Assembly (NCBI GenBank): GCA_947066895.1
Contig: CAMTAA010000002.1
Coordinates: 12,786 to 76,785, forward strand
Reading direction: 5' to 3'
Source: an uncultured Eubacteriaceae bacterium
Lineage (GTDB): Bacteria; Bacillota; Clostridia; Lachnospirales; Lachnospiraceae
Length of the DNA: 64,000 nucleotides
Part shown: positions 3,834-52,018 of the stretch, piece by piece
Position numbering within the stretch: the stretch's first letter is position 1
Layout: each line of letters opens with the position of its first letter
Notes under the pieces: generated by a model
The model's database searches: none
Seen by the model: the letters and a program-made list of their open reading frames with translations, nothing else
Told to the model about the DNA's origin: nothing
Translations under genes and position numbers: made by a program

Positions 3834-4104
3834 GGGGAGGGGGACGCTAGAGTTTGGAAGCGATTCTTTTTTGCTGTTCCGCTCTCCGAAAAGTAAGAAC
3901 GGCTAATGCCTCTGAGTTTAGGTGCATCTGACCGGACGGATCGGCACGCAATTCGCCTCTGCAGGAGGCTAAACACGTGCCTTTTTTTGCCATTTGGAAA
4001 TGGCAAAAAATCCTAGTGGATCGACAGAGGCATAAGACGTTCTAACTTTTCTCCGAAGTCACAGCAAAAAAGAATCGCTTCCAAACTCTGGCTGTTTTTT
4101 CCTG
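3834..4104 (+). repeat. Family A structured palindromic repeat, copy A1 (subfamily alpha stem ggcacg/cgtgcc)
   Basis: Terminal inverted repeats ggacgctagagtttggaagcgattc ... gaatcgcttccaaactctggctg. Internal long imperfect hairpin. A stem-loop followed by a T7 run, then apical hairpin gccatttggaaatggc. Begins 27 nt after the kinase stop codon. Preceded by a 21-nt x2 G-rich direct repeat (gttttgtagggaaatggga). Confidence 0.85.
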
Positions 4105-4208
4105 TATTTTTATTAATAAAAAGAATAAAAGGCGAGATGGAACTGCTTGGGAATGGGTATTGTTAGATTGAAAAAGGAAATTTGCATTGTGAAAATGTAA
4201 AATCAGGT

Positions 4209-4237
4209 TGTGAAAAAGCAGATTTCGTGATATATTA
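4209..4237 (+). promoter_or_regulatory. Candidate sigma-A promoter for the lipoprotein gene
   Basis: TTGTGA - 17 nt - TATATT, located ~65 nt upstream of the ATG at 4305. Confidence 0.4.
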
Positions 4238-4304
4238 GGAGAAGAGAGGAAAGCAGGACGGGAATTTTTTGTAAATTTTATGAATAGAGTGAGAGGTAAG
4301 AAGG

Positions 4305-5027
4305 ATGAAAAAGAGACTATGTACTGTGTTATGTGCAGCAACGATACTTTTAACAGGCTGCGGAGCAGTGGAATTGACAGATAGTGAAAGTGATCTAATA
4401 GCAGAGTATGCAGCAACTGTATTATTAAAATATTCAAATACCTATCAGCCTAAATTGCAGGACGAAGTAATAGAGACTATTCCGAATATTTATATTACAC
4501 CAACTGCTCCGGCAGATATATCACAAAACGGACAGGGCGGGCAGATATCGCCGAATCTTCCTGTTTCTACGGAGGCACCGGCAAAGAATCTTTCGGAAGC
4601 GGTAGGGATTGCAGCGGAAGGATTTGAGGTAGAATATGCCGGGTATGAAGTGACGAATACATATCCGAATACAGGAGATGCTTATTTTGCAATGAGGGCA
4701 ACGCAGAATAAACGGCTGCTGGTTATGAAGTTTGATATTACCAATCGGACGGGAGAGGAAAAAGAGTGCGATATTTTATCCAAAGAGAGAACTTACCGGT
4801 GTCGGGTAAATGATACGGAACGATTTGGGGCACAGCTTACCATGTTACTGGATGATTTGGCTTCTTTTAAGGAAGTATTTGCAGCAAATGAAACGAAACA
4901 GGCGGTTTTAATTTTCCAAATACCGGCAGAATATGAAGGCACGATTACTACTTTAGATTTAACCGTGCGTGGAGAAGGCGAGAGTAATAGTTATAGTTAT
5001 CATTCGGATTCCGCTGCCTCAGAATAA
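4305..5027 (+). CDS. Secreted lipoprotein of unknown function
   Basis: Signal peptide with lipobox (ILLTGCGAV). 240 aa. RBS GAGAGG upstream. Beta-rich C-terminal domain. Confidence 0.6.
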   Translation: MKKRLCTVLCAATILLTGCGAVELTDSESDLIAEYAATVLLKYSNTYQPKLQDEVIETIPNIYITPTAPADISQNGQGGQISPNLPVSTEAPAKNLSEAVGIAAEGFEVEYAGYEVTNTYPNTGDAYFAMRATQNKRLLVMKFDITNRTGEEKECDILSKERTYRCRVNDTERFGAQLTMLLDDLASFKEVFAANETKQAVLIFQIPAEYEGTITTLDLTVRGEGESNSYSYHSDSAASE

Positions 5028-5126
5028 AGAAATAAAAATAAAGACAAGTAGATTTGTTTGGGGTCTGGTAACGGTTTAACAACATTTATAATATTATGTA
5101 CGAAATAATTACATCAAAAGGTATGT

Positions 5127-5197
5127 GAAAAACCTTGTTGATTTTCAGATATAGGGACTGAATATCAGCAAGGTTTTCTTAATGTTTTCTTTTTTCT
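5127..5197 (+). terminator. Possible terminator downstream of the lipoprotein gene (large loop)
   Basis: gaaaaaccttg ... caaggttttc 10-bp stem followed by a T-rich tract. The loop is ~31 nt, so this is weak. Confidence 0.35.
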
Positions 5198-5430
5198 CCA
5201 TTTTATGAAATTCTTCTGTAAGTATATTATTGACTGCCTGTGAAAGGATTTTCGCCCAATGCCTTTTACAAGGTTGTGTTTTGGTGTTTTCGTTTTGGTT
5301 TTATACTGTGCCATATGAATATTAAAGGTTTTTCCTATAGTCTAAGCTGAAATAATGCAACTTAATGGAAAAAGTATTGTAACTTCAATATATATTTGTT
5401 ATGATAAAAATAAAAAGGTGGTATTAGATT

Positions 5431-5495
5431 ATGTCCTTCTCATATAAACCGCTATGGAAATTACTAATTGATTATGATATGTCGAAAAAGGATTT
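5431..5495 (+). pseudogene. Truncated small XRE-like HTH gene, interrupted by the family C insertion
   Basis: RBS aaaggtgg, then ATG encoding MSFSYKPLWKLLIDYDMSKKDL. This matches a widespread ~65-aa Firmicutes HTH protein N-terminus (recollection). The reading frame then runs straight into repeat C2 (..TSSRESPASKP..). No matching C-terminal half follows. Confidence 0.5.
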
Positions 5496-5612
5496 AACCT
5501 CATCAAGGGAGTCCCCCGCTTCTAAGCCGTCAAGGCGAAAGCGGTGGGTTGGGACTTCCTTGATGAGGTTATGAGCAAGTAGCGAAGCGGATTGCGAATA
5601 TCCGATTTGACT
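5493..5612 (+). repeat. Family C hairpin repeat, copy C2 (long form)
   Basis: aacctcatcaagggagtccc ... gggacttccttgatgaggtt forms a 20-bp stem around a structured loop. 3' tail agcgaagcggattgcgaatatccgatTTGACT. Confidence 0.85.
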
Positions 5613-49925: not shown

Positions 49926-49982
49926 AACTAGAAGAAAGAACTAGAAGAAAGATTAAGAGATAAAGGATATAAAAAAATAAAA

Positions 49983-50039
49983 GCAGCTGATATCGGCAGA
50001 TAAAATTTCTGCTGATATCGGCGGCTTTTTCTATTTTTT
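49983..50039 (+). terminator. Rho-independent terminator after the LCP gene
   Basis: Near-palindromic gctgatatcggc x2 forms a 12-bp stem, followed by ggctttttctatttttt. Confidence 0.65.
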
Positions 50040-50066
50040 ACCGTTGTTTTTTCTGTTATATTCTTT

Positions 50067-51041
50067 TTGGGGGCAGAATACAATGCTTTAGACAGAGCTT
50101 TTGATAGATGGGGAGGAATAGGGGTGCAGGCTTATTCGGTAAGAAGGTATAAAGGGCAGAAAAATCGGACGGGTTTATATTGGTTCTTTGGAGTATTGAT
50201 TTTTTTTGCTGTTTTTAATGTGATTTTATTGGATCATTTGCTGGTTCGTGGAGGAGTATGCCGGCTTCCTGCCTGTGCTTATGAGACGGAGAATTTTCGG
50301 GAAATGCAGATGAGCGAAGAAGCAATTACGGATTTAAAGGAATTTCAAAGGGTGCATCAGATTCCTATTGAAGAGGTTTTGGCGGTGTGGATGGGGATTA
50401 GTGAGTTTCAGTTGGATCGATTTGCTGCTATGCCGGATTCGATGCGAGAGGTTACCTATTTTCAGGATTGTAAAGCGTGGTATGAGGAACGGCAGCAGGA
50501 GGAGTATGAAAAGCTGCTGGCGGCTTATCGGGCGGTGATTTCGGATATTGTTTATTTTCCAGTGCCTAAGAGCAGGAATCTGCGGGCAGCGGAAGTTTAC
50601 TATAGCGATGGGTGGGGAAGTGAGCGGATTTATCGGGATGCTTCTCATGTGCATGAGGGGTGTGATATTATGGCAGGGAATAATGAGCGGGGGTATTTTC
50701 CGATTGTCAGTATGACAGATGGAGTGGTGGAACGGATTGGATGGTTAGAAAAGGGCGGATATCGGATTGGGATTCGCAGTCCGAATGGGGGATATTTTTA
50801 TTATGCACATCTCTATCGTTATGCAAAAGAATGGAAGGAAGGGGATAGGGTTTGTGCAGGAGAATTAATTGGATTTATGGGGGACAGCGGATATAGTAAG
50901 GTGGAAGGGACAGTGGGGAATTTTGCGGTGCATCTGCACCTTGGGATTTATATTCGGACGGAGCATTATGTGGAGCAGAGTGTGAATCCTTATTGGATTT
51001 TGCGGTATTTTGAGGATAAGAGGCTGGAGTGGGAGTATTGA
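50067..51041 (+). CDS. M23 family metallopeptidase with N-terminal TM segment
   Basis: M23 LytM-type motifs HEGCDI ... GDSGYS...G..AVHLHLGIY. The start is uncertain. GTG 50124 with GGGAGGAA RBS is an alternative. Confidence 0.8.
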   Translation: MGAEYNALDRAFDRWGGIGVQAYSVRRYKGQKNRTGLYWFFGVLIFFAVFNVILLDHLLVRGGVCRLPACAYETENFREMQMSEEAITDLKEFQRVHQIPIEEVLAVWMGISEFQLDRFAAMPDSMREVTYFQDCKAWYEERQQEEYEKLLAAYRAVISDIVYFPVPKSRNLRAAEVYYSDGWGSERIYRDASHVHEGCDIMAGNNERGYFPIVSMTDGVVERIGWLEKGGYRIGIRSPNGGYFYYAHLYRYAKEWKEGDRVCAGELIGFMGDSGYSKVEGTVGNFAVHLHLGIYIRTEHYVEQSVNPYWILRYFEDKRLEWEY

Positions 51042-51075
51042 GCAGATGGCAGGGGAGGATGGCAGGGGAGGATGG

Positions 51076-51332
51076 TGGGGGAGGACGCCAGAGGGAGAAA
51101 GTAAAATGGTATCGCAGTTCCGCTCTATGGAAAGTAAGAAGGTCTAAGACTTCTGAATTTCGGTGTATCCAACCGGACGGACCGGCACGCAATTCGCCTC
51201 TGCAGGAGGCTAAACACGTGCCTTTTTCGGGCACAAGTGCCCGAAAATCCTACAAAATCGACAGAAGTCTAAGACCTTCTAACTTTCCTCCGAAGTCACT
51301 GCGATACCATTTTACTTTCTCCCTCTAGCTGA
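51076..51332 (+). repeat. Family A repeat, copy A8 (subfamily alpha)
   Basis: A perfect ~27-bp TIR cagagggagaaagtaaaatggtatcgc / gcgataccattttactttctccctctg. Internal ggcacg..cgtgcc stem + T5 + gggcacaagtgcccg. Preceded by a 13-nt x3 repeat gatggcaggggag (51045-51083). Confidence 0.85.
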
Positions 51333-51484
51333 TATTCCCGCAATTTATGTTCTTATTTTTTGCCAATAGCAGAGGTTATCTTTGCTGTTAGTATAATTTT
51401 GTTTTTGGATTTAGCTGATTAGAGTTTATTATAGATACTTTTATTGGAATAGAGTTTATCAAAATAAAATTATACATCTGTAAA

Positions 51485-51790
51485 GAAAAAGAAACATAAA
51501 TTGTGGAATCATACAACCGCCAAGAAGAAATATAAATTGCAGAGTCATATAATCACAAAGGGGAAGAAACATAAATTGCAGAATTATACAACCATGAAAG
51601 AGAAGAAATGTAAATTGCAGAATCATACAACCGCTAGGGAGAAACATAAATTGCAGAGCCATATAACCATAAAGGGGAAGAAACGTAAATTGCAGAATCA
51701 TACAACCACCAAGGAGAAAAAACGCAAATTGAAGAACCATACAACCGCGAAAGAAAAGAAACGTAAATTGTGGAATTATATAGCCAGAGA
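51485..51790. repeat. Minisatellite, ~36-nt unit x 8 (TAAATTGCAGAATCATACAACC + ~14 nt degenerate purine-rich half)
   Basis: Units start at 51496, 51533, 51570, 51607, 51641, 51678, 51715 and 51764. The variable halves are degenerate versions of one sequence and are not unique spacers. Lies between A8 and inverted A9. Confidence 0.85.
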
Positions 51791-52018
51791 GTATTAAAAG
51801 TACGCTGTGACTTCGGAGGAAAACTAGAAACTCTTAGACTTCTGTCGATTCTGTAGGATTTTCGGGCACTTGTGCCCGAAAAAGGCACGTGTTTAGCCTC
51901 CTGCAGAGGCGAATTGCGTGCCGGTCCGTCCGGTTGGATGCATTGAAATTCAGAAGTCTTAGAGTTTCTGTTTTCTGGAGAGCGGAACAGCGTGCTTTTA
52001 ATACTCTCTGGCGTCCTC
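51782..52018 (-). repeat. Family A repeat, copy A9 (reverse orientation, subfamily alpha)
   Basis: agccagagagtattaaaagtacgctgtgacttcgg ... gggcacttgtgcccgaaaaaggcacgtgtttagcctcctgcagaggcgaattgcgtgccggtccgtccgg ... ctctctggcgtcctc. Confidence 0.85.

Follow-up and report, generated by a model that had tools for sequence, protein, structure and literature searches.

A high-copy structured repeat related to TwoAYGGAY RNAs in a gut Lachnospiraceae lineage, a candidate non-autonomous mobile element

What kind of sequence stands nine times among the genes of one stretch of bacterial DNA, codes for nothing and folds each time into the same long hairpin? This question is raised by a 64,000-nt stretch from an uncultured Eubacteriaceae bacterium of the Lachnospiraceae (GCA_947066895.1, contig CAMTAA010000002.1, positions 12,786 to 76,785), hereafter the window, in which a ~250-base non-coding hairpin-shaped repeat, family A, is present in nine copies. 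Our results suggest that family A is a lineage-specific, high-copy non-coding repeat from a branch of the TwoAYGGAY RNA family (Rfam RF01731) and that, in our cautious estimate, it probably multiplies as a non-autonomous mobile element. This reading best fits the ~200 copies, the restriction to one lineage, the turnover, the non-coding nature, the covarying stems and the invariant unpaired motifs that are described below. The orientation in which the element was first read, from the letters alone (the sequence-only reading), is referred to as the A strand, and the opposite strand is the Rfam strand.

Family A copies in the window

The nine copies are located as follows.

3834..4104, + strand: A1, L (long) subtype, 27 nt past the histidine-kinase stop codon
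20294..20556, + strand: A2, L subtype, 214 nt past the M32 peptidase stop codon, preceded by a tandem array
24538..24788, - strand: A3, M subtype, 108 nt upstream of a zf-HC2 gene and downstream of a tRNA
30445..30709, + strand: A4, L subtype, 69 nt past the actin-like ATPase stop codon
35081..35352, + strand: A5, L subtype, 23 nt past the pncB (NAPRTase) stop codon
39741..40012, + strand: A6, L subtype, 39 nt past the thiC stop codon, left half of a convergent pair
40172..40409, - strand: A7, S (short) subtype, right half of that pair, 120 nt upstream of an HD-domain gene
51076..51332, + strand: A8, 35 nt past the M23 peptidase stop codon, left half of a convergent pair
51782..52018, - strand: A9, S subtype, right half of that pair, ending 14 nt before a FAD-dependent oxidoreductase open reading frame (ORF)

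All nine copies can be aligned end to end, with a mean column identity of 80%. When the window is searched with a profile of this alignment, these nine are the only full-length matches (230-288 bits), and the remaining matches are weak, on the reverse strand and self-matches due to palindromy. The 5′ terminal motif GGACGCYRGA also occurs nine times in the window, once per copy, where 0.17 occurrences are expected. The alignment, the profile search and the motif count confirm the nine copies and their coordinates as given by the sequence-only reading, and all nine fold alike into the single long imperfect hairpin that it had described, with a side hairpin and U-run, an apical hairpin and an A-run. 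It had also named the flanking histidine kinase, M32 peptidase, actin-like ATPase, NAPRTase, ThiC and M23 peptidase genes correctly. Other parts of that description have to be amended. Of the proposed terminal inverted repeats of 25-30 bp, 7-10 bp are conserved (GGAC-GCYRGAG / CTCYRGC-TG) and the rest is a hypervariable, copy-specific stem. The distance of 23-70 nt between stop codon and element applies to five of the six copies concerned (27, 69, 23, 39 and 35 nt); A2 lies 214 nt away because a 35-bp x 5 tandem array stands in between. The element was said to lie always just 3′ of genes, which is incorrect, as A3, A7 and A9 lie 108, 120 and 14 nt upstream of gene starts.

The ORFs that overlap the copies vary in frame and strand from copy to copy, in agreement with the earlier claim that the element has no coding capacity; we regard these ORFs as artefacts and reject protein coding for this inconsistency. 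The genes that flank the copies in the window are housekeeping genes of unrelated function, and a riboswitch or gene-specific cis-regulator is rejected because the flanking genes are unrelated.

A conserved fold with covarying stems

Family A folds strongly on either strand. For A1, the predicted energy of the A strand is -137 kcal/mol (z = -11.5), and that of the opposite strand is -132 kcal/mol (z = -13.0). Each copy consists of a copy-specific, nearly perfectly paired outer stem, conserved inner stems and a junction with two hairpins, in which the sequences of the internal loop and of the junction are invariant. On the A strand, a copy starts with a G-rich lead-in, GGACGCYAGAG and an arm of 17-25 nt that varies among copies, continues with GTTCCGCTCT..AAAGTAAGAA, a covarying stem and the junction CCGGACGGAYCGG, and then enters hairpin 2, in which both strands of the internal loop (GCAATTCGCC and GGCTAAACAC) do not vary. 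After hairpin 2 come U5-8, hairpin 1, A4-7, TCCTA..ATCGACA and the returning stem, and the copy ends with CTCCGAAGTCAC, an arm complementary to the variable one, CTCTRGCTG and a tail rich in T.

The stems are maintained by compensatory changes. The RNAalifold consensus of 52 copies contains 76 pairs, 39 of them with compensatory changes. Standard pairs fill 98.4% of the cells; shuffling lowers this share to 85.6%, and displacing the partners by 1-3 columns lowers it to 40-50%. Cells with double changes number 503, compared with 139 in the shuffled alignment. Every helix covaries, including both apical hairpins (GGGGUG/CACCCC versus GGCACG/CGUGCC; GCCAU/AUGGC versus GGGCAC/GUGCCC). Although its sequence is hypervariable, the outer stem keeps nearly perfect pairing, and it is the most strongly covarying part of the element. 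The structure of family A is under selection.

Several features distinguish the two strands. The opposite strand folds more stably in 83 of 90 copies, with a mean margin of 7 kcal/mol when it is on the C-rich genomic strand and of 15 kcal/mol when it is on the G-rich strand, and the RNAalifold consensus energy is -131 kcal/mol for the opposite strand versus -112 kcal/mol for the A strand. There are four to five invariant G-U pairs on the opposite strand and two on the A strand. The opposite strand also forms an additional helix that closes both hairpins, and its hairpin 2 is nearly continuous, with UGUUUA paired with GAAUUG. Judged from the folding energies, the conserved G-U pairs and the Rfam matches described below, it is more likely the opposite strand whose fold is maintained.

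The A strand, on the other hand, carries a potential terminator, as hairpin 2 (mean dG -19.9 kcal/mol) is followed by U5-8 in 88 of 90 copies. It is unlikely, but worth weighing, that family A copies are host transcription terminators or insulators which act on the A strand, so that the upstream mRNA would end at hairpin 2 and its U-run and convergent pairs would insulate an intergenic region from transcription on both sides. A -20 kcal/mol hairpin with a U-run in nearly every copy is what such a role predicts. Termination at the U-run would nevertheless leave the 3′ arm untranscribed, yet the outer stem, to which this arm belongs, covaries most; the G-U pairs and the folding energies favor the other strand; and a 250-nt three-way junction with invariant loops far exceeds the needs of a terminator. 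Simple promoter and terminator scans were uninformative. The terminator scan flagged none of the copies, overlooking hairpin 2 and its U-run because the stem is interrupted.

Copy number and genomic arrangement

How abundant family A is beyond the window was addressed by a scan for GCAATTCGCC-N9-GGCTAAACAC with one genome per species, in which the matches listed all came from a single metagenome-assembled genome (MAG), MGBC128194. This uncultured Lachnospiraceae bacterium is the reference MAG of the species and shares 98.3-98.9% identity with the window over their common stretches; mouse-gut MAGs encode a ThiC identical to that of the window. By profile, 785 kb of MGBC128194 contain at least 181 copies, of which 112 are full length and 61 are cut by the end of a contig or locus, and many contigs of the MAG terminate inside a family A copy. 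The partial copies are decayed remnants. The copies belong to subtypes, L, S, M and X, that can be distinguished by their flanks. L copies are ~265 bp long and continue at their 3′ end into CTGTCTTTTCCTGCCGGTAG..., S copies are ~245 bp long, flanked by CCAAAGAG at the 5′ end and extended by GTATTGTTCCACAATTTACGTTTC at the 3′ end, and M copies resemble A3.

Neighbouring copies are arranged in a highly regular way. Among 45 neighbouring pairs no more than 3 kb apart, 43 are convergent in A orientation and none is divergent (binomial P = 2e-13), and the other two have the same orientation and are 2.6-2.9 kb apart. The spacers between convergent copies range from 62 to 1107 bp, and the ORFs between paired copies encode an esterase and an XRE-type regulator only. 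Convergence is independent of the orientation of the flanking genes, and the members of a pair are mostly of unlike subtypes. The 5′ ends of L copies face gene 3′ ends in 36 of 62 cases, at a median distance of 47 nt, and gene starts in the other 26. The S copies, which are almost never solo, face a gene start with their 5′ end in 17 of 18 cases. Solo copies have their A strand on the G-rich genomic strand in 20 cases and on the C-rich strand in 8 (P = 0.036), a bias fully confounded with gene orientation. The window as a whole has a very strong GC skew that is positive throughout (+0.15 to +0.50, measured per 2 kb), and the + strand carries almost all of its genes, consistent with the window being part of one replichore of a Firmicute with extreme strand bias.

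These positions bear on a terminator role in both directions. Five of the six co-oriented window copies lie 23-69 nt past a stop codon and leave no space for another terminator, the 36 L copies next to gene 3′ ends have a comparable location, and convergent pairs would stop transcription arriving from either side. The 26 L copies and 17 S copies that face gene 5′ ends, however, have nothing there to terminate.

The window has 13 tandem arrays, of which six lie directly against family A copies, and seven of the nine copies have an array next to them. The abutting arrays, listed here without strand, are degenerate re-iterations of the terminal 15-45 nt of the element, and occur on its G-rich 5′ side as well as on its 3′ side.

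3795..3835: tandem array, 19-bp x 2.2, G-rich, abutting the A1 5′ end
20115..20292: tandem array, 35-bp x 5.1, G-rich, abutting the A2 5′ end
35360..35527: tandem array, 66-bp x 2.6, abutting the A5 3′ end
40027..40152: linker array between A6 and A7, 45-bp x 2.8, the unit ending in a degenerate S-subtype terminal extension (GAAACNTAAATTG)
51045..51097: tandem array, 13-bp x 4, G-rich, overlapping the first 20 nt of A8
51489..51770: tandem array, 39-bp x 7.4, a re-iterated A9 terminal extension (AGAAACGTAAATTGTGGAAT...)

Such an arrangement brings to mind a role at the DNA level, in chromosome structure or replication, by way of BIME/REP-like cruciforms or of binding sites for nucleoid proteins or topoisomerase; the tandem arrays might then be by-products of replication slippage at the hairpins. 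The near-palindromic sequence with strong folds on both strands, the BIME-like alternation of unlike copy types in opposite orientation with linker arrays, and the arrays next to seven of nine window copies would all agree with this analogy. We consider it very improbable all the same, as the asymmetry between the strands (G-U on one, A-C on the other) argues for a single-stranded form.

Relationship to TwoAYGGAY RNAs

The sequence-only reading matched the element to no named RNA family. An Rfam search does so for some copies. A3 scores 68.2 bits against RF01731, TwoAYGGAY (gathering score 43 bits), at positions 24570-24745 on the + strand, and five of about 30 copies searched in the MAG (18 loci) score 68-77 bits, with local E-values reaching 3e-13. 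In every case it is the opposite strand that matches, not the A strand. The model misses most family A copies: A6 and A7 have no match at E<10, the window copies other than A3 have none at E<5, and the sister-species copies described in the next section have none.

TwoAYGGAY was described by Weinberg et al. (2010, PMC2864571) as a candidate small RNA (sRNA) with a P1 stem that is "often very large" and two AYGGAY terminal loops. It has been in Rfam since 2010 with its function unexplained, and Gardner and Eldai (PMC4333381) proposed that it sequesters CsrA. Family A shares with it the long variable closing stem, the inner stems, the two adjacent apical hairpins and the habitat of gut Clostridia. 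Besides shape, the model alignments reveal unpaired sequence common to both, and the junction CGGnnnCGUC of the model (CGGuugCGUC) corresponds to CGG-UCCGUC in family A. A human-gut seed also has the basal motif UGUGACUUYGG...CGGAACA together with a long variable outer stem (hgutS8_s8_177709_1, UGUGACUUUGGGAGAAAAUUAG...CUUAUUUUCGUACAACGGAACA; family A, UGUGACUUCGGAGGAAAGUUAG...CUUACUUUCUGUAGAGCGGAACA).

The differences are equally clear. On the matching strand, AYGGAY does not occur in any of 90 family A copies; its 75 occurrences on the A strand of these copies are in the junction CCGGACGGAYCGG, outside the hairpin loops. Both apical hairpins have been replaced, one by a hairpin between the U and A runs and the other by a hairpin with the invariant internal-loop strands UGUUUAG / CGAAUUG. 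The hairpin loops on the Rfam strand read UCUCGA, CUU or CUGCA, and GGA is found in a hairpin loop in some copies only, and on the A strand only. Finally, TwoAYGGAY was described as an sRNA candidate, and family A is a dispersed repeat of about 200 copies. Going by the model matches and the shared motifs, family A appears to be a divergent branch of the TwoAYGGAY superfamily that lacks the name-giving feature. Our literature search found no description of these repeats in Lachnospiraceae. Family A is thus not wholly undescribed; it is a new branch of a known, functionally uncharacterized Rfam family. The Psychromonas seeds of TwoAYGGAY, which number several per genome with repeated sequence in the flanks shown, suggest that repeat-like behavior might be general for the family.

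Could family A then be a functional RNA of the TwoAYGGAY class, expressed from the opposite strand as a sponge for a protein such as CsrA or as a cis-acting 5′ leader? The matches of 68-77 bits on that strand, the conserved G-U pairs, the invariant internal loops and the strong covariation speak for it. Seventeen of the 18 S copies are located upstream of a gene and co-directional with it on the opposite strand, and a putative extended -10-like motif, TGTGGAACAAT, can be read just upstream of the S-subtype start. Nonetheless, a functional RNA of this kind is improbable in our view. With at least 181 copies, family A far exceeds all known families of sRNA genes, the genes beside the copies have unrelated functions, many copies aim antisense into the 3′ end of a neighbouring gene, and the scans detected no promoter or terminator. 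The CsrA sponge in particular is rejected: its rationale is inapplicable to family A because neither AYGGAY nor GGA is present in the hairpin loops of the Rfam strand (0 of 90 copies).

Gain and loss among sister species

Comparison of orthologous sites reveals presence/absence differences between sister species in both directions, with deletion remnants. In the sister species L126 (PncB 91% identical), the spacer between pncB and the thiamine pyrophosphate (TPP) riboswitch is 296 bp long, compared with 1012 bp in the window, and A5 and its tandem array are absent; a copy begins just past thiC, however, in the same way as A6. In the sister species L140 (GCA_951800365.1; actin-like ATPase 94% identical to that of the window), the A4 site is occupied by a 55-nt mini-hairpin in which a GTTCCG microhomology marks the junction between the full 5′ arm and the final 11 nt of the 3′ arm, and the A2 site retains only a 3′-arm remnant and a single array unit. 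Conversely, the PBP-NUDIX spacer of L140 contains a full copy and a reversed mini-copy where the window has an empty spacer of 78 bp, and the site at which A3 stands alone in the window is occupied by a convergent pair in L140. Three further relatives (89%, 78% and 75% protein identity) have no copies in 21-22 kb each. The empty sites, remnants and other sites of the sister species, together with the absence of copies from the distant relatives, indicate that family A is gained and lost; it is restricted to a narrow lineage and turns over on the time scale of speciation.

Two observations on the L140 copies may be added. In one case a full copy has behind it a reversed "mini" copy of 38 nt, made up of nothing but the termini. 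At positions 1576-2075 and 5371-6129 of L140, the copies are ~330 nt long and have an extra branch of 80-90 nt inside hairpin 2. Despite this insertion, sister-species copies retain the invariant internal-loop strands.

Turnover of this kind weighs against each of the three alternatives introduced above. The genes of the sister species manage without an element at orthologous sites that are empty or eroded, which argues against host terminators; the same empty or eroded sites argue against a functional RNA, and the loss of copies from orthologous sites argues against a DNA-level role in the chromosome.

Family A as a non-autonomous mobile element

The reading that we favor is a non-autonomous, hairpin-dependent mobile element. 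This had been one of two suggestions of the sequence-only reading, and it is now supported by at least 181 copies, by gain and loss between sister species with remnants, by the lack of copies in the sampled 21-22 kb of each somewhat more distant relative, and by the lack of coding capacity. The selected unit would be a single-stranded fold, either RNA or single-stranded DNA, and the relevant strand would most likely be the opposite (Rfam) strand. Its recognition surface would consist of the invariant unpaired motifs GUGACUUCGG / CGGAAC, UGUUUAG / CGAAUUG and CGGUCCGUC, and a factor encoded elsewhere would recognize these motifs and copy or move the element. If only copies with an intact stem can propagate, the massive covariation would be explained without a host function at each locus.

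The other suggestion, an undescribed terminator or insulator RNA, is retained in part. The near-universal terminator module of the A strand makes a secondary terminator role plausible, and where hairpin 2 and its U5-8 stand just past a stop codon they would probably halt read-through. The relation to RF01731 and the evidence on the fold, which favors the opposite strand, count against the remainder of the suggestion. The terminator module is probably a side effect or an exaptation rather than the reason for the existence of the family.

We then considered where a mobilizing partner or another origin might be found. No multi-copy transposase family is present among the 562 ORFs of the MAG loci, and no Y1 (HUH) transposase among the window genes scanned with Pfam. 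Viral contigs gave no match to the pattern, and collections of phages and plasmids gave no BLAST match, so that an origin from a phage or plasmid is rejected. Three contigs were listed in a scan of metagenomes, two of which are from the same species and the third of which matches through the element copy alone, so that the scans of public collections add little to the taxonomic range. A guide-RNA scaffold of TnpB or IscB, a hammerhead or other ribozyme and a fragment of a group II intron are rejected, as TwoAYGGAY is the sole Rfam match at the gathering score or at E<5. An integron attC array is rejected since the copies lie 4-16 kb apart among chromosomal housekeeping genes. The resemblance of GGGG..ACGC to Tn3-type ends is superficial, as the distance to the G-run is not fixed and the other end has no G-run.

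Several observations weigh against a mobile element. First, in line with the earlier claim that no transposase is associated with the element, no transposase, reverse transcriptase or HUH protein was found near any copy, and no autonomous version was found. Second, the conserved ends amount to GCYRGAG / CTCYRGC and two to four flanking bases, and neither the window nor the 785 kb of MAG sequence yielded a gene-bearing element that shares them; a terminal conservation of 7-10 bp is unlike that of classical miniature inverted-repeat transposable elements. Third, no target-site duplication could be read, as three comparisons of filled with empty sites between sister species revealed no direct repeat, with left boundaries blurred by divergence and arrays. 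Fourth, the strains sampled within the species have the same copies at the same sites without any presence/absence difference, and current mobility is therefore unproven. Fifth, the exclusive convergent pairing and the tandem re-iteration of the ends are unexplained by a mobile-repeat model. Sixth, two features belong to the A strand alone, namely the module of hairpin 2 and U-run and the base pairs formed between the G-run at the 5′ end and the U-rich tail at the 3′ end. Finally, five elements of the window diverge between strains by 0.8%, whereas third codon positions diverge by 2.8%, the other intergenic DNA by 1.4% and the tandem arrays by 3.9% (Fisher P = 1.5e-5 for the element comparison). 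This reduced divergence hints at constraint at the level of the host and would suit a host terminator or a functional RNA. An element pair at another locus, on a low-coverage contig, diverges by 2.4%, which equals the neutral rate. As the strain results are inconsistent (0.8% for five elements, 2.4% for two), no conclusion rests on them.

A broader proposal can be made, tentatively, and we regard it as possible but on the whole unlikely: TwoAYGGAY-class elements, family A included, may be unrecognized structure-dependent mobile elements rather than sRNA genes. In such a scheme, the basal internal loop (GUGACUUYGG / CGGAAC) and the junction of a fold of ~170-330 nt would be read by an enzyme encoded elsewhere, and the element would be copied through a single-stranded DNA or RNA intermediate. 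Insertion near gene ends as convergent pairs would leave tandem re-iterated termini and would seed the genome with terminator or insulator modules, and the near-perfect but hypervariable outer stems would be the footprint of arm-to-arm correction in the intermediate.

Family B and neighbouring features

A second, unrelated hairpin repeat of about 85-125 nt, family B, with the stem AACCTCATCAAGGAAGTCCCC.../...GGGACTTCCTTGATGAGGTT, is also present in the window.

711-784: family B copy
5485-5625: family B copy, with a predicted fold of -64 kcal/mol
7734-7850: family B copy
9716-9798: partial family B copy
33341-33508: family B copy
62054-62175: family B copy

Family B has 60 BLAST matches in 43 MAG loci and no Rfam match, and in one MAG locus a family B copy directly abuts a family A copy. 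Two family B repeats enclose a DNA methylase gene (5664-6662, PF01555) and an unannotated ORF of 293 aa on the opposite strand (6633-7514); this region, 5485-7850, may be a small mobile restriction-modification cassette. Upstream of pncB, the window has a family B repeat where the sister species have a small serine recombinase gene (Resolvase + HTH_17; L126 446-1159, L140 19697-20374) immediately upstream of pncB.

The window has further features of note. The gene at 30789-33227 (+) encodes an 812-aa protein with the shoulder domain of the eukaryote-type Major Vault Protein and Vault_3 domains. It adjoins the gene for the actin-like (PilM/FtsA/MreB-like) ATPase, and this pair is conserved in L140. 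A TPP riboswitch (35588-35698, 67.7 bits) precedes the thiM-thiE-thiD-thiC operon, and ~330 bp between its expression platform and thiM (35720-36060), which include a short B-like hairpin (TTTTTAACCTATCAAGGAAG...), are absent from L126. The tRNA at 24134-24216, 322 nt from A3, has a long variable arm.

Comparison with other repeat systems

A repeat without the sponge motif, present in roughly two hundred copies and turning over between sister species, undermines the CsrA-sponge idea for the family A branch, and would recast the TwoAYGGAY family as a selfish or semi-domesticated structured repeat. As each copy has a unique variable stem, individual copies should be distinguishable in metatranscriptomes, which makes family A a tractable system. 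There is also a practical side, since these repeats break the short-read assemblies of this gut lineage and give rise to spurious ORF calls.

Among non-coding intergenic repeats, Correia (CREE), ERIC, BOX and RUP elements resemble family A in having about 10^2 copies per genome, in forming hairpins as RNA and in being able to carry terminators or promoters. BOX has an internal 45-bp module in tandem between partly complementary ends, and thereby resembles the composites of L copy, 45-bp array and S copy in family A. These elements have terminal inverted repeats conserved in sequence, and Correia and RUP have defined target duplications. Family A, in contrast, has 7-10 conserved terminal base pairs, no duplication that we could see and its conserved sequence in the interior, and shares no sequence similarity with any of the four.

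The likeness to REP, REPIN and BIME repeats is closer in organization. These are extragenic, high-copy and hairpin-forming, their characteristic unit is an inverted pair, their stems are preserved by compensatory changes, the repeat contains no transposase, and unlike unit types alternate in orientation with defined linkers. REPs, however, are simple imperfect palindromes of 20-40 nt with a GTAG-type head, whereas family A is about 250 nt long with a multi-helix junction. Neither a RAYT nor a Y1 gene turned up in a search of the window and of part of the MAG, and the host of family A is a Firmicute. The palindrome-associated elements (PATEs) of the IS200/IS605 family share with family A the dependence on single-stranded hairpins and recognition without terminal inverted repeats. 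They differ in that the left- and right-end hairpins of IS200/IS605 are on the same strand, whereas paired family A copies are inverted. The orientation bias of solo family A copies with respect to GC skew is also modest (20:8), neither TnpA nor TnpB was found, and the IS605-orfB and HEARO RNA families gave no match. By analogy, family A would seem akin in spirit to REPINs or to IS200/IS605-derived elements, with a fold that is much larger and more complex.

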